Source of the DNA: Candidatus Thorarchaeota archaeon
Lineage (GTDB): Archaea; Asgardarchaeota; Thorarchaeia; Thorarchaeales; Thorarchaeaceae
NCBI GenBank assembly: GCA_048884965.1
Contig: JBHLQH010000035.1
Location: 1-34,585 of the forward strand
Direction: 5' to 3'
Length of the DNA stretch: 34,585 nt
The notes under the pieces were generated by a model. It was given only the letters and a program-made list of their open reading frames with translations. It searched no databases and was not told the origin of the DNA. Both the position numbers and the translations under genes were made by a program. Positions 22,828 through 34,585 of this stretch are shown here, piece after piece. Positions within the stretch are counted from its first letter, which is position 1; each line of letters starts with the position of its first letter.

Positions 22828-23376
22828 CTACGAGATGATGAATGATTGTCTGCACACGGTACAGGTAACGGTTTCACCCCGAACCGCAACGCGTTCTAGC
22901 TCAGCTCGACAATAGGGACATCCATGTACTGTTTTCGGTGCTGGACCAGTTCCTGTACCTAGAATGAAATCCCCCGAGTCATGATCGACCCTTCCTGACA
23001 ATTCTCTTCCATCAAGCAGGTCTGTTAGGATCTTAGCGACTTCATGTGCTGGAACGCCTGACTCCTGTGATATCTTCTCAATTGGAATCTTCCTCATTCC
23101 TTGGACGGTTCTCTTTACCGCGCTAACAGGATCAATTAGTGCTTTCTTTACCGGCGTCGCGGGTGTCAGTTTGGCCGCTGCTATTTCCTCAGAATCGATT
23201 CGAGGCTCTGGTACTCTAACAGGCAGAGAACCTCCTGCAGCTTGGAGCTTGTTTCGTAAGTCCTCCATCTTCATATTGTACTCTTCTTCGGATACCCAGC
23301 CTCGCATATAGTCTAGGTCCAAATCCTTGATGGCTGCTTCAATCCGTCTTACTTCACTATTGGTCCCATCTTCCAT
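22828..23376 (-). CDS. SHOCT-like + PCI/winged-helix + zinc-ribbon protein
   Basis: N-terminal LDLDYMRGWVSEEEYNMKMEDL (SHOCT-like); IPIEKISQESGVPAHEVAKILTDLLDGRELSGRVDHDSGDF (PCI wH pattern); C-terminal CPYC..CTVC. Confidence 0.65.
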   Translation of the reverse strand: MEDGTNSEVRRIEAAIKDLDLDYMRGWVSEEEYNMKMEDLRNKLQAAGGSLPVRVPEPRIDSEEIAAAKLTPATPVKKALIDPVSAVKRTVQGMRKIPIEKISQESGVPAHEVAKILTDLLDGRELSGRVDHDSGDFILGTGTGPAPKTVHGCPYCRAELERVAVRGETVTCTVCRQSFIIS

Positions 23377-26040: not shown

Positions 26041-26595
26041 CTACAGTGCCTCATTAAGGGCTCTGTCCTCTCTCTCTTTTTGCTCAGCCAAAATGCCCTT
26101 TAGTTTGTGCTTGAGCTGTGCCTTTAATCGAATTCTATCCTGATCCAGGCCAAAATAGTCCGCGAAGAGCGGGGTGGTCTTGAGCATCTTGCTCCTGCCT
26201 TCCGGAATCGCCTCGATGAACTTCTTCTCTTCGAGTTCCTTGACATGGTCATAACAATGTGTGCCTCGTTGAGCGACAAGATCTGATTGGATGATTGGCT
26301 GTTTCAAAGCGATGAAGACAAGAGTCTGCAGAGTAGCAAATGATAAGAGACCTCCAGGAATGAGTTTTCCAACTCTCGGAGTCAACTCCGGCTTGAGTTG
26401 CATGACATATCTGTCACGTGGCAAGCCGATAACCTCAAGGGCTCCCTTGCGCTTGTTGTACGTGAAGCTAAGGTCCTCAAGGATTTTCCTCGCAGTAGAC
26501 TCTGCTTTTCCGATAAGTTCGGCAAGCTCCTGAAGGGTCAATGCTCTCCCTGCTGCATAGAGGGCTGCTTCAATAGTTAGCATATCTTCACTCAT
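26041..26595 (-). CDS. scpB: SMC-Scp complex KITE subunit ScpB
   Basis: IEAALYAAG, LQTLVFIALKQPI.Q..L...RG, GRS..L.TT..FADYFGL; directly follows scpA. Confidence 0.93.
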   Translation of the reverse strand: MSEDMLTIEAALYAAGRALTLQELAELIGKAESTARKILEDLSFTYNKRKGALEVIGLPRDRYVMQLKPELTPRVGKLIPGGLLSFATLQTLVFIALKQPIIQSDLVAQRGTHCYDHVKELEEKKFIEAIPEGRSKMLKTTPLFADYFGLDQDRIRLKAQLKHKLKGILAEQKEREDRALNEAL

Positions 26596-26599
26596 TACA

Positions 26600-27316
26600 T
26601 CACAGCTCCAGTTGAGCTTGAGCCTCAAGAGAGTCGTCGTCATCATTGATAAGTGGTGGCTTAAGAAGCTGAACCTGAATGATTCCTTCCTCATCCTCCC
26701 ATATATCAATGAACCTTCTTGCATAGAGATGCAGCAATGCGAAGAAGACGCGAACGATCTCTCGCCTAGTTCGATTCATCAGGATATCCATGAATTTAGC
26801 GATCTCTCCGACCTTCATTAGGCTTCGAAGGTCGTCAAGTACCTCTTCGATGTTCTCCTCAACGTCTGCCCTCTCAACTTCCATCTTAAAGGTGAGAGGA
26901 TCCGCTCGAGACCGTACTTTCTGCCGTGTTGGGCTGGCTCGTGAACGAACACCTTTGGTCAATACTCTGTCCATTGCAATGAGAAGCTCTTGGAGAGTCA
27001 CACGTCTATTCGTAAGTCTGAATGGAGGATGAATCATCGGGATCTCAAAATCATCATCGTCACTGACCTCCTCTGGTGGAAGAATTCCAAGCTCAACTAG
27101 GTCTCTAGTCTTCTTCATGAAGATGACCGAAGCCGAGTACAATGCATTACCCGAAACTCGGAAATCAATATCCCCGATACGCTTCATCTCTCTAAGGAAC
27201 GCGGCTACTAGCTTGCCTACGTCGATGTTCCATGGTTCTACCTTGTCAAGCTGCAGGACATCCGTCAACAAGATATACGGAGGTGTAGCCCAGAATGGAG
27301 AGTCATCATCGTTCAT
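26600..27316 (-). CDS. scpA: Kleisin ScpA
   Basis: EPWNIDV, SGNALYSASV, RRVTLQELL, and C-terminal FFALLHL; overlaps the smc stop. Confidence 0.9.
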   Translation of the reverse strand: MNDDDSPFWATPPYILLTDVLQLDKVEPWNIDVGKLVAAFLREMKRIGDIDFRVSGNALYSASVIFMKKTRDLVELGILPPEEVSDDDDFEIPMIHPPFRLTNRRVTLQELLIAMDRVLTKGVRSRASPTRQKVRSRADPLTFKMEVERADVEENIEEVLDDLRSLMKVGEIAKFMDILMNRTRREIVRVFFALLHLYARRFIDIWEDEEGIIQVQLLKPPLINDDDDSLEAQAQLEL

Positions 27317-30300
27317 GCTGATTCTGCTACCTCCTCCAAGTCAACAGAAAGAATCTTTGACAACCCATCATGACTTGATACCCCCAAGAGGAGATCTGCC
27401 TTTCTGAATGTCGGCTGTCTTAGCGAAACGACGATGAATTGCGATGACTTTGATAGTTCGGAGATAAGATTAGCTACATTATGTGCATTAACATCATCGA
27501 GGGCTGCATCAATCTCATCGAAGACATAGAAGCTTGCAGGACTATACATCTGAATGGCGAATATCAGAGCCAGACCTGTCAAGGTCTTCTCCCCGCCACT
27601 CATCGAATCCAAGCTGACAAGCTCTTTTCCTCTTGGCTTGGACCGGACAGTAATGCCTCCCATGAGCGGATGCTCAGGGTTCTCAAGCATCAATGTTGCC
27701 TCCCCTCCTGGGGATAGCTTTGCGAAGACCCGGGCGAAATTGTCAGCTATCTCGTTGTAAACGATGAGGAACTTCCTAGTCTTCTCTCTCTCCAGTTCTT
27801 CCATGAATGCAAGGATTTCCTTATGCTCTTCCTCGAGCTTTGTCTTCTTGTCGACAATCTCATCATATCTCAGTTTCTCTGCATCATAATCATCAAGCGA
27901 CTTGAGATTGACCGCACCAATCGCTTCTTGCTCTCGCTCAAGCTCCCTGATTTTCTCCTCAAGGTCCTCTATCTGTTTATAGGTCAATTCCTCTCTATTG
28001 ACACGGTTCGCAATCTCATCCTCGACCTCCGTCATAATGGAGAGTTCTGCAGTAAAAGCGACAAGATCTGTTTCGAGGCGTGACTGTTCGGTTTGAAGCC
28101 TATAGACTGATTTCTCATTCGAAGTCTGTGCCTCACGAATCTCCTCATGGCGTAGACGAAGGTTTCTCATCTCTTCCTTCAGCTGAAGTTGCTTTACCCT
28201 CTTGTCCTTGACTTCATCCTCGATCCTGTCCCGCTTTGACTTGAGTCCATCCAGACTTTCTTGTTTTTCATTGAAGAGTTCCTCAAGTCTGTTAACTTCA
28301 GCTTCTTGTCCAGGAAGGACAGTCAGTATCGATTGATAGCGTGTTTCCAACTCAACGGACTTGGGATTGAGTCTTTCCTCAAGTGCGACCTTGAGACCTG
28401 TAAGTTCTCCTGTTAGAGTTTCTCGTTCACGTTTATGGTGTTCAAGGACCTCTTTCAGATCCTTGATCTCTTGATTGAGCTGATTCGCATCAGACTTCAC
28501 GAGGGCTTCATTGGCTTCATCGCGCAATGACCTCACAGTCTCACGGTGCTCGCTCAGCTCAGTGTTTCTCTCGCGAAGACTGCTTACTTGGGTTTCTAGG
28601 GCTTCGATAGTCTTCTGCGCTATGGTAATCTTCTGTTGCAGTGCATTGATTCGCGATTCCTTTTCATTGAACTGCTCATCGAGCTTCTCGACTTCTAATC
28701 GCGTTCGATAGTTAGCTTGGGATAGCTTCTCGATCTCCCGTTCAAGGTCCTTTCGTCGGAGTGCGATCTCTTTCTGTTGCTCCCTCACGTCTGCAAGTAT
28801 CTCTTCTAGTCCTTCAAGGCGTTTTGCGATCTCTGGGCTGTTATCCTCGACCTGCAGTGAGAGGCCTGCGCCACTCTTCTGGAAATAGCCTCCTGTGACA
28901 AGACCTGTCGTTTCTACTAGGTCACCATCCAGTGATACTGCCCTGTACTTGCTAAAACCTATCTTTTTGGCAGTTTCAAAATCCTCTGTTACTACTGTAT
29001 CCTGAAAGACATATTGAAATGCTGGTTCGAATTTCAAGTCATAATCGACTAAATCTATTGCAAATCCAAGTACCCGCATATCCGATGGGAGCTTTCCTGT
29101 GGCTCGAGATTTGATTTTGTTCAGCGGAATGAATGAAACTCTTCCCGCACGCTCTCGCTTGAGTACATTGATGCACTTGGTGGCGACTTCCTCATCGTCC
29201 ACGACGACATGCGACAGTCTATTGCCTCCGGCAACCTCCATTGCGATGATATACTCAGGATCGATCTTTCCGAGTTCTGCTACTGTACCATAGATGCCTG
29301 CGATCTCTCCTGAGTCGCGAAGTTCTAGGACTCGTGAGATTGCTCTCCTTCTTTTGAGAAAAGCTTCCTCTGCATCCTTCAAAGCGTCTTGACGCGCCTG
29401 GATTCGAATGAGTTCTTCTCTTGTTTCACTAACGATACGAGCTGCTTCACTCGCTTCCCCATCCACCCGCACTTGGCGCGCCTCAAGGTCCTCTAGTTCA
29501 GCTCGTTTTGTTTCCTCGAGTTTATCACTTACTTCCAAAGCCTTCTTCTTCTCAGGTAGGCTGGCACGGAGTTCCTCAATGCCCTTCTGGGTTTCTTCGA
29601 GGTTCTGCTGGGAGTCCTGCACTTCCTCATACGCCATTCCCAACTCTCTACCATCGGTCTTTATCGCTGACCGGACCTCAGAAACGCCCTCGTCAAGTGC
29701 TATCATTTGATTATTCAAATCTTGTAATCGCTGCGCGGTTTCGTAGTAGTTAGCTTGCTCTCTCTCGAATTGCTCATCAAGTTTCTGAATATCTTGTTGA
29801 CATTCCTCTATCTCTTTGTCAAGCTTGGCAAGCTCACTTTCTTTCTCGCTCACCTTCGCTTCCGCACTCGTAGTCTGAGTCTGTACGAGTTCCTTCTCCT
29901 CGTCAATGACCTCTTTTTGTGCAAGGATCCGTTCAAGCTCATCCTTAGCACGCATCATCTCTGATTCAACATGACTGACAGCAGCGGATGCCTGTCCGTA
30001 CTCCTCAGATATTCTTGCGGAATCACCACCAGTTATCCTATCGATCTCCGCGTCAATATTCTCAATGTCCGCCTCAGTCTGGTCTTGTTTGCTCTCGACT
30101 TCCGCCAGTTCTCTGGCGAGCTGTTCCACCTCTTGTGCGCGTTCAGCAAGGGTCTCATTAATTGTGACAATTCTATTGCGACCTTTGAGTATCGTCCAAG
30201 CGAGGCGGTCAATCTCGATACGCTGAATCTCATTCTTCGCGCCCATGTATCTGAGGGCGTCCTCTCTCTCAAGCTCGAGCTTCTCCAACTGTCGGCGTCT

Positions 30301-30903
30301 TTCAATTAGTTGTGTTTCGACCTTTCCAAGATTGGTCTCACTCTCGGCAAGCTTTTTGAGAGCACGTTCCTTTTGCTCGTCGTAAGCTGAGATACCTGCT
30401 ATCTCTTCGATAAGCTTCCTTCTGTCAACCGGACTGACCTTGACCATCTGAGCAATCTCGCCCTGTAGTACCAGATTGTATCCGTTTGGATCGACACCAA
30501 TGCTTCCAAGGATGTCAAGCACTGCTTGTCGAGTTACTACCTTTCCATTTATTCTGCAGGTCGATTTTCCCGAGTCATCCAATTCTCTCTCGACGACAAC
30601 CTTGTCAGCATCTACTTGCAATTTCCTATCCTTGTTATTGAAATGTAGCTCGACGATCGCGGACTTGGCTTTCGGAGGCATGTCTGGTTTTGGAGGGGAG
30701 TATAGGAGGTCTGAGAAGACATTGGCTCGTAGAGTCTTTGCACTGAGTTGTCCTAGCACGAAAAGAATTGCATCTATGACATTCGACTTGCCAGATCCGT
30801 TGGGTCCGACTATACAGGTAAAACCACGGTTCATCCTGACAGTTACAGCATCTCGTCCAAATGACTTGAAGCCCCTGCAGACTAGCTTCTCAATATGGAC
30901 CAA
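27313..30903 (-). CDS. smc: Chromosome segregation protein SMC
   Basis: GFKSFG, Walker A GPNGSGKSN, Q-loop VLQGEI, coiled coils, hinge GIYGTVAELG..GRVSFIPLNKI..GLVTGG, signature MSGGEK, Walker B FDEIDAALD. Confidence 0.98.
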   Translation of the reverse strand: MVHIEKLVCRGFKSFGRDAVTVRMNRGFTCIVGPNGSGKSNVIDAILFVLGQLSAKTLRANVFSDLLYSPPKPDMPPKAKSAIVELHFNNKDRKLQVDADKVVVERELDDSGKSTCRINGKVVTRQAVLDILGSIGVDPNGYNLVLQGEIAQMVKVSPVDRRKLIEEIAGISAYDEQKERALKKLAESETNLGKVETQLIERRRQLEKLELEREDALRYMGAKNEIQRIEIDRLAWTILKGRNRIVTINETLAERAQEVEQLARELAEVESKQDQTEADIENIDAEIDRITGGDSARISEEYGQASAAVSHVESEMMRAKDELERILAQKEVIDEEKELVQTQTTSAEAKVSEKESELAKLDKEIEECQQDIQKLDEQFEREQANYYETAQRLQDLNNQMIALDEGVSEVRSAIKTDGRELGMAYEEVQDSQQNLEETQKGIEELRASLPEKKKALEVSDKLEETKRAELEDLEARQVRVDGEASEAARIVSETREELIRIQARQDALKDAEEAFLKRRRAISRVLELRDSGEIAGIYGTVAELGKIDPEYIIAMEVAGGNRLSHVVVDDEEVATKCINVLKRERAGRVSFIPLNKIKSRATGKLPSDMRVLGFAIDLVDYDLKFEPAFQYVFQDTVVTEDFETAKKIGFSKYRAVSLDGDLVETTGLVTGGYFQKSGAGLSLQVEDNSPEIAKRLEGLEEILADVREQQKEIALRRKDLEREIEKLSQANYRTRLEVEKLDEQFNEKESRINALQQKITIAQKTIEALETQVSSLRERNTELSEHRETVRSLRDEANEALVKSDANQLNQEIKDLKEVLEHHKRERETLTGELTGLKVALEERLNPKSVELETRYQSILTVLPGQEAEVNRLEELFNEKQESLDGLKSKRDRIEDEVKDKRVKQLQLKEEMRNLRLRHEEIREAQTSNEKSVYRLQTEQSRLETDLVAFTAELSIMTEVEDEIANRVNREELTYKQIEDLEEKIRELEREQEAIGAVNLKSLDDYDAEKLRYDEIVDKKTKLEEEHKEILAFMEELEREKTRKFLIVYNEIADNFARVFAKLSPGGEATLMLENPEHPLMGGITVRSKPRGKELVSLDSMSGGEKTLTGLALIFAIQMYSPASFYVFDEIDAALDDVNAHNVANLISELSKSSQFIVVSLRQPTFRKADLLLGVSSHDGLSKILSVDLEEVAESA

Positions 30904-31087: not shown

Positions 31088-31453
31088 CTATCCGACCATA
31101 GAAACGAGGGCGCGCTTTAGCGCCATCCGGATAAGACCGGCTTGTTCTCGAGCACCTTCTCCTGCTATACCTGCTAGGACCATCTTGACATCTCCAAGAA
31201 TGAAGACATAACCTTCCTCAGCTGCGATGGTCAGCTCCTTCAGACCTCCCATATCGATTCCTGCTGTCAGTTGGGATGAGTTCGCTGAGATTTTCACAAC
31301 TAGTTTTGCAACATCTGAATGCTTGATGCCTTCAGATATCGTGTGGGCGAAGATAACTTCCCCTTTCGCGTCACAAACAACGATTCCTTGAATGTCCGCG
31401 TGTGCCGCCATTGTTTCACTGACGATCTGTTCAATCTTAGCTGTGTCAACCAT
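31088..31453 (-). CDS. Roadblock/LC7 domain protein
   Basis: Helix, IQGIVVCDAKGEVI, helix, ELTIAAEEGYVFI beta strands, then AGLIRMALKRA: roadblock topology. Confidence 0.82.
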   Translation of the reverse strand: MVDTAKIEQIVSETMAAHADIQGIVVCDAKGEVIFAHTISEGIKHSDVAKLVVKISANSSQLTAGIDMGGLKELTIAAEEGYVFILGDVKMVLAGIAGEGAREQAGLIRMALKRALVSMVG

Positions 31454-31630: not shown

Positions 31631-33259
31631 ATGCCTATGTTGAGAACTAGCTCAGAGTCTTTTCCAGCATCAAAGAAGATGATGAGCGATATACCGTACG
31701 TCCTTCGTGTCGGTTTTGGTGACCTTGGGAGCGACGTAACGAAGATTGTAGGATTGCCTATCGCATGTCAAAAATGTGGTGGCTTCCTCATTAGTGTAGA
31801 TCAGGTAAATGATGATGAGAAAGTCGGAAAGCACTTTACCTGTGCGTTTTGCGGAACATTGAATATTATCGGGGGAGAGGTCATTCTTGCTGGAAATGAC
31901 ACCGACTTCGTGATTAAATCCCCTCCAGACACGACCCAAACCGGTACAGACACGGTTACTGTTGGAGGAAAATCATTCCTTGCATTGATCGACGTTTCTG
32001 GATCCATGGCTGGAGCCAATCTGTCAGCTGTGAAAAGGAGTCTGAACACATCCATCGACAGCTTGGCTGCCAACTCACCTGACACTTTCTTTGGACTAAT
32101 AGAGTTCGAAAGTAGTGTTCATTATCGTGACTTGGAAAGCGGGAGTGGCGTTCAGCTACCCTACGAATCATTTCCAAGCTACGATAAGATCGTTGAGGAG
32201 ACAAAGAAGCTGCTTGACAAGATCAAGCTGGTTCCAGTAGGAAAGCACTCTGACAAGCTAAAGAAACATGTAGATACCTTGCGTGATCAAGGAGGTACAG
32301 CATTAGGCCCTGCAGTAGCCATGGCTTCTGTTATTGCCAAGCATAGAAATGTCGGACGTGTCGTTCTTCTGACTGATGGTCTTGCGAATGAAGGAATTGG
32401 CGCCCTTGAAGGGTATCAGGTCACTCCGGCCAATGCGTTCTATGAGGACTTAGGCAAGAGATTCATGGATCTCGGCTCTGCAGTGGATGTCGTAGGTATT
32501 GCTTCTGGAGCAGGCATGGAGCTGAAGACCCTTGGACTATTGGCTGAGGCCACAGGTGGTCAGATGTACTATGTCACTCCCAACGAGCTTGATAGAAGCA
32601 TCTCAGAGCTTGCTGGTGCTCGACTTCTCGGCAGGGATGTACAGGTCAAGTTGATCACTCCTAAGGGAATCAAGGTCAAGGACGCATCTGGAGTATCCCG
32701 TGCTGTTATAGATGATCTTACCAAGAATAAGGAGAGTAAGATCGGTGTGGTCGGAGCGGACCATGAGCTCTACTTCGAGGTCGAACCAGAGAGCGAGATC
32801 AAGGAATCTGAGGTGCCCATTCAAGTACAGGTCGAGTATACCGATGAGGAAGGTGCCCGCAGAGTTCGTGCAGTTACGACCACGCTCAAGGTATCCAAGA
32901 GTGAGGATGAGGTCCTAGAAACCCTCGACCCAACTCTGGGAGCCACTTTCGTCACCCAAAAGGCTGGCGAGGAATCCTTCTCAGGTGATAGGAAGAAGGG
33001 CAAGAAGCGCATTGCTGCCTTCAGGTCGGCCATGAAGGAGTATGCCAAGGACGCTCCTGAGGAAACTCAGGCAATGTACGATAAGACCGAAAAGGCCCTT
33101 GAAGCTGAAGAGAATGAGATGGATCGTCTGGAAGAGATGATGGATGCTGAGCCTTCTATGGCACCATCCGCTGCAGCTGATGAAGCCTTCACCAAGGGCT
33201 TGGCACAGATGCGAAAGAGCTCCAAACAAATGTTCGAAGAAGAAGAAGAGGACGAGTAA
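31631..33259 (+). CDS. Sec23/Sec24-like protein (Zn finger, vWA trunk, beta-sandwich, short helical region)
   Basis: CQKCGG..FTCAFCGTLN Zn finger; IDVSGSM MIDAS, GGTALGPA, LLTDGLAN; QVEYTDEEGARRVRAVT (cf. Sec23/24 Y...GxRRIRVxT); acidic tail. Confidence 0.82.
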   Translation: MPMLRTSSESFPASKKMMSDIPYVLRVGFGDLGSDVTKIVGLPIACQKCGGFLISVDQVNDDEKVGKHFTCAFCGTLNIIGGEVILAGNDTDFVIKSPPDTTQTGTDTVTVGGKSFLALIDVSGSMAGANLSAVKRSLNTSIDSLAANSPDTFFGLIEFESSVHYRDLESGSGVQLPYESFPSYDKIVEETKKLLDKIKLVPVGKHSDKLKKHVDTLRDQGGTALGPAVAMASVIAKHRNVGRVVLLTDGLANEGIGALEGYQVTPANAFYEDLGKRFMDLGSAVDVVGIASGAGMELKTLGLLAEATGGQMYYVTPNELDRSISELAGARLLGRDVQVKLITPKGIKVKDASGVSRAVIDDLTKNKESKIGVVGADHELYFEVEPESEIKESEVPIQVQVEYTDEEGARRVRAVTTTLKVSKSEDEVLETLDPTLGATFVTQKAGEESFSGDRKKGKKRIAAFRSAMKEYAKDAPEETQAMYDKTEKALEAEENEMDRLEEMMDAEPSMAPSAAADEAFTKGLAQMRKSSKQMFEEEEEDE

Positions 33260-33316: not shown

Positions 33317-33468
33317 CAGTCTTTCAATCACGATTGCACGTAATACAAGGTTATAACAGAATGCGCAAAAACGTATACTTGTGCTGAATTCATATCCGCA
33401 ACTCTAAAATAGTCACGCGAGGCGTAGAGTTTGCGAATTGCACAAGATTGCAGCGGGGATTCCCTAGT

Positions 33469-33768
33469 TTGATAAGTCAAGATAAACTTCAAGCGATTCT
33501 TCAGAGGCTTAGGGCACAAGAAGGTGTCCGAGGAGTCGTAGTTACAACAATGGAAGGATTGCCTCTCAGTAGTGACATAGACCCAGACACCACAGAATCT
33601 GTTGCTGCGATCATAACCTCCTTGGTCGGCAAGGCGCTTGATGCCGTGCGTGAACTCAAGGAAGGTTCGCTATCGTTCCTGACCCTGGACACAACCAAGG
33701 GACAGATAAACATCGCACCGGAACCCAAAGAGGGAGTAATCCTGGTAGTCTTAAAGGATAACGAATGA
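33469..33768 (+). CDS. Roadblock/LC7 domain protein
   Basis: LQAILQRL..EGVRGVVVTTMEGLPL..ESVAAIITSL..LTLDTTKGQINIAP..ILVVL, a classic LC7/roadblock pattern. Probable TTG start at 33469. Confidence 0.9.
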   Translation: MISQDKLQAILQRLRAQEGVRGVVVTTMEGLPLSSDIDPDTTESVAAIITSLVGKALDAVRELKEGSLSFLTLDTTKGQINIAPEPKEGVILVVLKDNE

Positions 33769-33781
33769 AGGAGAAACGAAA

Positions 33782-34243
33782 ATGTCGGAACCCAAGGTAT
33801 TTGATAAAATATTGACTGAAATAATCAGGCAGGATCGAGGAATTAAGAAAGTCATCCTCGTCGACAAGACTGGCCTGACCATCGCTAACGTCAGTAAGCT
33901 TTCTGCCTTCGTCGTTGATACGGACAGCATTGGTGCGATCGCGAGTGCTGTGTTCTGTGCAAGTGAAGAGCAGGGCAAGAACCTTCAGATAGGTGAGCTT
34001 GAGATAGTGACCTCTGAGTTCTCTGAAGGAAAGATCTTTGCATCTGCTTGCGGAAAGGGTGTGCTCTGTGTCGTGTCTGAGGCTGAGGTCAATATTGGTA
34101 TGATCCGCCTCGTCATGAAGAAGCAGGGTGTACAGCTTGCGGATGAACTTGACAAGTTTCTCGCAGTTGAGCCTTCACCTGGTAAAGACGAGCTTGACGA
34201 AGAGGACCTGAAGTCTGCGCTCGAAGAGCTCGAGAGAGTGTAG
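33782..34243 (+). CDS. Roadblock protein, MglB-like, with acidic C-terminal helix
   Basis: VILVDKTGLTI, DTDSIGAIASA, NIGMIRLVMKK (cf. MglB lGlvRl..K), then tail ELDEEDLKSALEELERV. GGAG RBS. Confidence 0.85.
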   Translation: MSEPKVFDKILTEIIRQDRGIKKVILVDKTGLTIANVSKLSAFVVDTDSIGAIASAVFCASEEQGKNLQIGELEIVTSEFSEGKIFASACGKGVLCVVSEAEVNIGMIRLVMKKQGVQLADELDKFLAVEPSPGKDELDEEDLKSALEELERV

Positions 34244-34427: not shown

Positions 34428-34585
34428 GTGCGCAAAGATGACAAGGGACGTATTCATCTGAAGCTGGTCTTCTACGGACCATCACTCGGTGGTAAAACCA
34501 CGGCTTTGAGATGGCTTTACGGGAAAGTAGAGGGTCTCCAAAAGGGTGAGTTCACAGCTATAGAAGATGAAACGAACAGAACGCT
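34428..34585 (+). CDS. MglA-like small GTPase, 5' part only (runs off the window)
   Basis: GTG start after GAGGTG; my translation is MRKDDKGRIHLKLVFYGPSLGGKTTALRWLYGKVEGLQKGEFTAIEDETNRT(L), with G1 GxxxxGKT and an MglA-type E.xRTL switch I. Absent from the ORF track. Confidence 0.85.
   Translation, partial: MRKDDKGRIHLKLVFYGPSLGGKTTALRWLYGKVEGLQKGEFTAIEDETNRT

Follow-up and report, generated by a model that had tools for sequence, protein, structure and literature searches.

A Thorarchaeota Sec23/24-like protein with an invariant MIDAS motif set and apparent sequence kinship to eukaryotic CPRas-type proteins

The presence of genes for Sec23/24-like proteins in Asgard archaea has been cited in support of the idea that components of a vesicle coat already existed in the archaeal ancestor of eukaryotes. 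All of the Asgard Sec23-like proteins were reported to lack the gelsolin domain, which is the source of the catalytic residue for Sar1, and to lack the Sar1-contact residues as well, and their Foldseek match was Sec23 (PMC11914678, Nat Commun 2025); the same study found that Asgard Arf-like GTPases can bind membranes and engage yeast Sec23. Two other described systems are relevant here. In the archaeal protein ArnB, an ion occupies the equivalent MIDAS (metal ion-dependent adhesion site) of the von Willebrand factor A (vWA) domain (PMC12852372), and in eukaryotes the CPRas family combines cpRAS, a circularly permuted Ras domain, with a vWA or "Sec23 trunk" domain and a putative four-cysteine finger, and includes paralogues without cpRAS (Elias & Novotny 2008, PMC2430557). 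Here we analyze a Sec23/24-like gene from a Candidatus Thorarchaeota archaeon (assembly GCA_048884965.1, contig JBHLQH010000035.1). The window, i.e., the whole stretch of 34,585 nucleotides that was analyzed, is one complete contig (G000:C35) of an Asgard metagenome-assembled genome (MAG) with a completeness of 95.7% and a contamination of 7.2%. Judged by sequence comparison, the closest eukaryotic relatives of the encoded protein look to be CPRas-type proteins that carry a zinc finger and a vWA domain (ZnF-vWA proteins), not Sec23/24. This relationship looks new, as does the invariance of the MIDAS across the Asgard family.

The gene is an open reading frame (ORF) of 542 amino acids at 31631..33259 on the forward strand, the span including the stop codon; gene callers elsewhere place the start at Met3 (31637), which gives a protein of 540 amino acids. 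A homologue search returned more than 300 homologues, and the gene is real and conserved. In its own genome it is present as a single copy, the only other match being one weak generic vWA protein. The nearest homologues to carry a name are proteins of Thorarchaeota MAGs, among them P0034 from Thorarchaeota SMTZ1-45, which is 75% identical over its full length and is called a "SEC24 family transport protein" in its database record; NCBIfam holds no model for the Asgard Sec23/24-like family. The gelsolin-less architecture, and with it the conclusion that such proteins do not act as GTPase-activating proteins (GAPs), is already known for all Asgard Sec23-like proteins (PMC11914678). The gene is thus an ordinary member of a published family, to which MIDAS invariance, CPRas-type kinship and a cluster with MglA and roadblock genes are additions. 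In the text of that paper "MIDAS" and "metal" occur 0 times, "roadblock" appears in the reference list only, and CPRas-type relatives are unmentioned. A literature search returned no paper joining Asgard with MIDAS and von Willebrand, or with CPRas, which shows only that none was found there. The features of the gene are as follows.

31631..33259, forward: Sec23/24-like gene (ORF, Pfam, more than 300 homologues, single copy)
31631..31750, forward: N-terminal beta-strands, residues 1-40, which, like those of Sec23/24 and ArnB, are predicted to complete the beta-sandwich (model strands E4-6, E10-12, E24-28 and E37-40)
31757..31867, forward: C4 zinc finger with C46, C49, C71 and C74, then N78 (invariant cysteines, profile alignment, sub-threshold Pfam match)
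31967..32620, forward: vWA or Sec23 trunk domain, residues 113-330 (Pfam Sec23_trunk, VWA and VWA_2; alpha/beta fold in the AF2 model)
31991..32005, forward: MIDAS motif 1, D121-V-S123-G-S125, followed by M126 (invariance in alignments)
32297..32299, forward: MIDAS T223, in the TALGPA motif (invariance in alignments)
32372..32380, forward: MIDAS D249 in T248-D249-G250, within LLTDGLAN (invariant; replaced in Sec24)
32621..32899, forward: beta-sandwich, residues 331-423 (Pfam Sec23_BS; model strands within 332-422)
32903..33235, forward: C-terminal helical bundle, residues 425-535 (model helices 425-430, 434-450, 454-472, 477-506, 514-527 and 531-535)
33233..33256, forward: acidic tail FEEEEEDE (translation, family alignment)

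The initial annotation of this DNA, made from the letters alone, had described a Sec23/24 domain order without a gelsolin domain, and all of the motifs that it quoted are present in the translation: LRTSSESFPAS (residues 4-14), IPY (21-23), the four cysteines, DVSGS (121-125), GGT (221-223), TDG (248-250), YTDEEGARRVRAVT (403-416) and FEEEEEDE (535-542). The domain order itself was borne out by Pfam, profile alignment, Foldseek and VIA-align. Sec23_trunk (PF04811) matched residues 116-316 with 50.7 bits against a cut-off of 27, Sec23_BS (PF08033) matched residues 336-422 with 36.1 bits against a cut-off of 33.5, and zf-Sec23_Sec24 matched residues 43-78 with 15.4 bits, under its cut-off of 25; neither Sec23_helical (PF04815) nor Gelsolin matched the protein in Pfam even at E ≤ 1. 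Across an alignment of 30 orthologues from eleven Asgard families, with identities down to 23%, the trunk was found in 30/30, the beta-sandwich in 29/30 and the zinc finger (at E ≤ 0.01) in 18/30 proteins, and a Pfam scan of the same orthologues found Sec23_helical in 0/30 and Gelsolin in 0/30. The cysteines C46, C49, C71 and C74 are invariant over all 30. The best PDB sequence match of the single protein is Sec24A (E 2.7e-4). The profile of the 30-member family matches yeast Sec24 colinearly at E 1.8e-18 (profile 42-474, Sec24 226-688; 433 positions, zinc finger through first helix past the sandwich), Sec23 at 1e-5, and ArnB (8s05) at E 1.1e-8 over about 150 positions. In hhalign, residues 3-30 pair with the N-terminal strand region of Sec24, and the alignment extends only to residue 462, i.e., to the first one or two helices of the bundle.

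The AF2 model built on the 30-member alignment (pLDDT 86.9, pTM 0.88) places N-terminal strands, a small zinc-finger region, an alpha/beta trunk, a strand-rich sandwich, helices at 425-535 and the acidic tail in this order. In a Foldseek comparison with the PDB, chains of Sec23 or Sec24 filled ranks 1-46 (E 4e-30 to 1e-24, TM 0.61-0.73), followed by a Catenulispora vWA protein (4fx5) and then the ArnAB complex (8s05). VIA-align superposed the model on Sec23A/Sec24A with Z ~29 and an rmsd of ~4.2 Å over ~495 residues; model residues 1-542 corresponded to residues 13 to 625/634 of human Sec23A, 7 to 640 of yeast Sec23 and 179 to 757 of yeast Sec24. In this comparison the ~110-residue helical bundle falls on the helical region of Sec23/24, where Pfam gives no helical match. 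As the model ends at Sec23A 625-634 and Sec24 757, the protein stops where the Sec23/24 gelsolin-like domain starts; this end point and the Pfam result agree with the earlier observation that the gelsolin domain is absent and that the protein ends in helices and an acidic tail. From its N-terminal strands the single chain thus runs through a C4 zinc finger and a vWA trunk, which splits the beta-sandwich, to a helical bundle; a gelsolin domain is absent, and we assign the protein, by identity and architecture, to the Asgard Sec23/24-like family with high confidence.

These matches bear directly on an alternative in which the likeness to Sec23/24 would be superficial and the protein a generic prokaryotic vWA protein. 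VWA and VWA_2 match the same protein in Pfam, and the records of some relatives read "VWA domain-containing protein" or "Mg-chelatase subunit ChlD"; a generic protein would, however, hardly bring Sec23_trunk and Sec23_BS over their Pfam cut-offs, a zinc finger, trunk, sandwich and first helix colinear with Sec24, and 46 best Foldseek matches that are all Sec23/24. These results contradict the explanation, which we regard as very improbable. The initial annotation had named placement among generic vWA proteins, with no zf-Sec23 or Sec23_BS match, as the outcome that would overturn it, and this outcome did not occur.

Ahead of the tail, the family alignment shows a conserved, basic and serine-rich motif, AQMRKSSKxLF (33170-33256 for motif and tail, residues 514-542, alignment columns 640-686). 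The tail that follows is acidic in some Asgard families, that of this genome among them, and basic, in some cases strongly so (KKRMEKKKK), in several others. Motif and tail together could be a target of phosphorylation or an element for charge-dependent docking.

Judging from the predicted structure, ArnB is the nearest prokaryotic fold (VIA-align against 8s05, Z 25.5 over 363/381 residues), and ArnE (5a8j) superposes with Z 22.9. The protein could accordingly be read as a one-chain signaling module of the ArnA/ArnB type, in which the zinc finger of ArnA is fused to an ArnB-like protein and phosphorylation of the bundle switches partner binding and so controls motility or surface structures. 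ArnB has an occupied MIDAS, a regulatory C-terminal bundle and the ArnA zinc finger bound at its sandwich (PMC12852372), the MRKSSK core of the motif described above would offer serines ahead of the tail, and MglA/MglB control motility polarity in bacteria (PMC3199381). We nevertheless consider this reading unlikely, as the sequence is nearer to Sec24 than to ArnB (in the E values and aligned lengths given above), the neighborhoods examined showed no gene for an FHA protein, a kinase or a phosphatase, and separate ArnB-like proteins, outside the family, exist in other Asgard genomes. Two such vWA proteins of ~425 amino acids (L058:1174-2457 and L061:1054-2319) belong to Asgard family f11 and have ArnB 8s05 as their best PDB match (E 1e-9); the f11 genomes that encode them lack the Sec23/24-like gene.

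The vWA pattern associated with a functional MIDAS, namely DxSxS, a threonine ~70-100 residues further on and an aspartate past the next strand, is present as D121-x-S123-x-S125, T223 and D249. Among the 30 orthologues, D121, S123, G124, S125, M126, T223, T248, D249 and G250 are all invariant, and the D, S, G, S and M of the first motif are 100% conserved in 21 diverse Asgard sequences as well; the equivalent of T223 is 100% conserved even in 110 eukaryotic CPRas-type representatives. The full metal site noted initially is thus kept throughout the family. Its degeneration in eukaryotic coat proteins was confirmed for Sec24, the comparison covering human Sec24A, yeast Sec24 and ascomycete Sec24. 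Ascomycete Sec24 aligned to the Asgard hidden Markov model (HMM) keeps D-x-S and has lost the second serine, with serine in place of the threonine and T-A-S in place of T-D-G, while the site is incomplete in human Sec24A (DVSHN; QTQ) and in yeast Sec24 (DVSQS but VSGT). Since all five coordinating positions are invariant across such deep divergence, which is our main argument, the site is probably in use. We infer from the sequence that the site holds a divalent cation, by way of which the protein would bind an acidic ligand.

The relationship to CPRas-type proteins emerged from a profile search of 1.84 billion representatives, which returned 597 proteins at E ≤ 1e-30. After ~40 representatives of Asgard type came proteins of 450-1089 amino acids at 200-249 bits, and every named protein in this set is eukaryotic: a sea urchin "circularly permutated Ras protein 1-like" protein, a Willaertia protein combining Ras, the module and RING, and proteins from Chrysoparadoxa, a choanoflagellate, Entamoeba (VWFA proteins) and Soliformovum. 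CPRas-type proteins score a median of 213 bits with the Asgard HMM, versus 55-70 bits for Sec24. Profile-profile alignment with hhalign gave the same picture: Asgard versus CPRas-type scored 649 (E 6.7e-82, 480 columns, probability 100%), Asgard versus Sec24 scored 155 (E 5.7e-19, 430 columns), and CPRas-type versus Sec24 scored 141 (E 4.3e-17, 385 columns). These profile comparisons put the Asgard family much nearer to the CPRas-type proteins of eukaryotes than to Sec24. The MIDAS motifs are retained in the CPRas-type proteins (DxSGSM in 86-90%, the threonine in 100%, T-D-G in 100%). A Pfam scan of 66 of them found Sec23_trunk in 52, the Sec23/24 zinc finger in 33 and Sec23_BS in 22, with gelsolin and Sec23_helical in 0/66, and a phmmer screen found a Ras-like N-terminal domain fused to the homologous module in 24/110 eukaryotic relatives. 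The ESM Atlas lists the same eukaryotic clusters as nearest neighbors, which we treat as a lead only. Other fusions of the ZnF-vWA module were seen too, to Ras and RING in Willaertia and to Kelch and ankyrin repeats in a metagenome protein (P0186 and P0267); the RING domain may indicate a link to ubiquitin ligation.

The relationships were examined with a quick maximum-likelihood tree (IQ-TREE, LG+C20; 59 rows, 506 columns), which was rooted on two ArnB-like Asgard proteins with ArnB as their best PDB match. Its Sec24 sequences, gathered by way of a fused fungal gene model that contains Sec24 (one of three matches in a search for longer homologues), are all from ascomycetes and thus low in diversity, and Sec23 sequences were left out. 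The family of this genome forms a clade with a support of 99, the CPRas-type proteins form a clade with an SH-aLRT support of 98 on a stem of 0.86, and Sec24 forms a clade on a stem of 4.78 substitutions/site. Sec24 is thus on a very long branch, and it is the conservative state that the Asgard and CPRas-type families have in common. Taken at face value, the tree nests the eukaryotes within the Asgard families other than that of Thorarchaeota (97 SH-aLRT). We rejected this reading because a tree constrained to Asgard monophyly was likelier (+11.7 log-likelihood units; p-AU 0.745) and because Sec24 is on such a long branch.

Of 400 genomes of the phylum that were scanned, 152 had a match to the Sec23/24-like gene, and many families had none. 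In the family of this genome it occurs in 78/85 genomes at 45-91% identity; other Asgard families have full-length orthologues of ~515-620 amino acids at 27-40% identity (in our family numbering, f13 12/12, f14 13/19, f16 6/6, f21 5/14, f22 23/135 and f30 4/5 genomes). This patchy distribution is one of several observations that speak against a working proto-COPII inner-coat subunit, which would be recruited by a membrane-anchored GTPase of the Arf/Sar type and would polymerize or bind cargo to bend membranes. That idea draws on Sec23/24 being the best structural and PDB sequence matches and on the membrane binding and Sec23 engagement of Asgard Arf-like GTPases (PMC11914678). The protein, however, has no gelsolin domain, the Sar1-contact residues are missing and binding to Asgard Arf is weak and nucleotide independent (PMC11914678). 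Further, the single copy in this genome provides no paralogue pair of the Sec23/Sec24 type, coat proteins do not feature an invariant MIDAS, and the family is much closer to CPRas-type proteins, which are not coat proteins. We therefore consider the proto-coat idea quite unlikely.

The genes next to the Sec23/24-like gene in the window are as follows.

31088..31453, reverse: Roadblock/LC7-like gene (RoblA), divergent from the Sec23/24-like gene (Pfam Robl_LC7, E 1.3e-3, under the cut-off)
33448..33768, forward: Roadblock/LC7 gene (RoblB; Pfam Robl_LC7, 61.7 bits; synteny), true start probably at ~33469
33782..34243, forward: Roadblock/LC7 gene (RoblC), acidic helix at the C-terminus (Pfam Robl_LC7, 39.9 bits)
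34428..34585, forward: MglA-type small GTPase, first 52 codons, cut at the contig end (3'-open ORF)

RoblC is weakly MglB-like (NCBIfam MglB, E 3.9e-4, far under the cut-off), and an ORF matching RoblA lies at the same position in 5/8 sampled loci of the family. The remainder of the GTPase was found on another contig of the same genome (G000:C8:135632-136111, reverse strand), the ends of the two contigs overlapping by 77 nt; that contig also carries a fourth roadblock gene and a cis-prenyltransferase gene, in the same order as in related genomes. The GTPase orthologue matches Myxococcus xanthus MglA at E 8e-39 and keeps the residues aligned to Arg53, Thr54 and Gln82, which in MglA are intrinsic catalytic residues positioned by the roadblock dimer MglB (PMC3199381). 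By comparison of coordinates, 60 Thorarchaeota genomes of the family have MglA on the strand of the Sec23-like gene and 1-5.5 kb downstream of it; among the sampled family loci MglA lies a few kb downstream in 7/8, and RoblA, RoblB and RoblC flank the gene in most. The MglA/roadblock cluster is confined to this one Asgard family. At least 10 related assemblies likewise have MglA and the Sec23-like gene on separate contigs, the latter lying near the end of its contig; metagenome assemblies probably break here because MglA is 95-99% identical across the family.

Two further loci of the window were noted. A ScpB-ScpA-SMC operon (26041-30903, reverse) lies directly upstream of the divergent RoblA, an order kept in most sampled genomes of the family, and a small protein encoded at 22828-23376 (reverse) has a weak PCI-domain match (E 2e-4, just under the cut-off).

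The best explanation of these observations, to which as a whole we give a probability of roughly 0.55, is that the protein is a metal-dependent adaptor of CPRas-type kinship. We infer that it is not a GAP and that it is more likely to be a metal-dependent protein-binding adaptor than a GAP: by analogy to other vWA domains, the MIDAS cation would be completed by a carboxylate of a partner protein, with additional docking surfaces offered by the zinc finger, the sandwich and the helical bundle. The most likely setting would be a small-GTPase circuit, which in Thorarchaeota would involve the adjoining MglA with its own catalytic arginine and glutamine; the roadblock (MglB-like) regulators of MglA would then supply the GAP function that Sec23 supplies through its gelsolin domain. 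CPRas-type ZnF-vWA proteins would be the conservative eukaryotic counterparts, their module often fused to a Ras-like GTPase, and Sec23/24 would be a much more diverged branch that gained the gelsolin domain and lost the MIDAS. The link to a GTPase is suggested by three indirect lines, namely the Thorarchaeal synteny, the eukaryotic cpRAS fusions and the Sec23-Sar1 precedent, and the proposed mechanism, a metal-dependent adaptor or effector in a small-GTPase circuit, is tentative, with the odds somewhat against it.

Several observations weigh against this explanation. In yeast coimmunoprecipitation, three Asgard Sec23-like proteins bound Asgard Arf weakly and independently of the nucleotide, and MglA was not among the partners (PMC11914678). 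The MglA/roadblock linkage is absent from one sampled genome of the same family (G315) and from the sampled loci of f2, f14, f16, f21, f23 and f30. Within 6 kb of the gene in other Asgard families, a Ras-type GTPase occurs only in f13 and f22 and one roadblock gene only in f19; we rejected these neighbors as evidence, since they are about what chance would give with 30-70 small GTPases per genome. MglA is present in 347/400 genomes of the phylum, including families without the Sec23-like gene, and, being nearly universal, does not depend on the Sec23-like protein. Phyletic co-occurrence of the two genes was likewise set aside as uninformative, given that MglA reaches this frequency regardless of the Sec23-like gene. 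In the tree, every eukaryotic row lies to the same side of a branch whose support is 58, so that a single eukaryotic origin of CPRas-type proteins and Sec24 has only this support, and the Asgard-monophyly tree is at least as likely.

Some suggestions of the initial annotation are only partly supported. A candidate partner GTPase with its own arginine exists in this genome, as an MglA-type protein two genes downstream that keeps the equivalents of Arg53/Thr54/Gln82, but the linkage is confined to one Asgard family and MglA is unlinked elsewhere. The term "ancestral form" is left unsettled by the tree, which does not fix the branching order of the Asgard, CPRas-type and Sec24 lineages, and the nearest eukaryotic proteins are of the CPRas type and not Sec23/24.

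With these reservations, we suggest a broader scenario, which is possible but somewhat more apt to fail than to hold: the Asgard "Sec23/24 homologues" would be the archaeal counterparts of the CPRas-type family, MIDAS-dependent adaptors of small GTPases whose GTPase is either adjoining (MglA with roadblocks, in Thorarchaeota) or fused (cpRAS, in eukaryotes), and Sec23/24 would have been derived by gaining the gelsolin domain with its arginine finger and losing the metal site, so that CPRas-type proteins would represent a living pre-COPII state. If the present results hold, the label "proto-COPII" for the Asgard genes needs caution in view of the conserved metal site, the CPRas-type kinship and the MglA/roadblock linkage, as the profile score is about four times higher to the noncoat CPRas-type family than to Sec24 and the only conserved gene linkage of the family is with a polarity-type MglA/roadblock switch. 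CPRas-type proteins would then be a slowly evolving eukaryotic branch, and the origin of the inner coat could become testable.

Set against the known systems, the Thorarchaeota protein is indistinguishable in structure from the published Asgard Sec23-like proteins (PMC11914678): the family, the domain set, the absence of gelsolin and the Foldseek match to Sec23/24 are all the same. With Sec23/24 it has in common the conserved zinc-finger cysteines and a fold and order of domains that begin with the N-terminal strand and reach, in structural superposition, the helical region (Z 29, ~495 residues); unlike them, it lacks the gelsolin domain, from which the catalytic residue is supplied in Sec23, and unlike Sec24 it has an intact MIDAS, the similarity to Sec24 being weak (55-70 bits, hhalign 155) and unaccompanied by a Pfam Sec23_helical match. 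ArnB and ArnE have in common with it the vWA domain with a MIDAS, the beta-sandwich that the vWA domain divides and the C-terminal helical bundle (Z 25.5 and 22.9), and the deposited title of 8s05 describes it as an "archaeal ortholog of the Sec23/24 core motif". The Thorarchaeota protein carries its zinc finger in cis, whereas in the archaellum regulatory network of Sulfolobus the finger acts in trans, in ArnA, and the bundle is phospho-regulated (ArnC/PP2A). The protein thus has the fold of an ArnB-like protein, with no separate ZnF-FHA partner and no FHA or kinase genes in the loci examined. Compared with CPRas-type ZnF-vWA proteins, the archaeal protein has neither the insertion of 30-50 residues past DxSGSM nor the long N-terminal extensions, and it carries neither the circularly permuted Ras domain found in about one-fifth of them nor the RING or other domains found in some. 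Pfam detected no GTPase domain in it, so that it is not a CPRas protein proper and resembles in this respect the cpRAS-less eukaryotic paralogues. What the archaeal and CPRas-type proteins share is the colinear series of N-terminal strand, C4 finger, vWA domain, sandwich and helical region, without gelsolin, and the motifs DxSGSM, TALGPA and TDGLAN.

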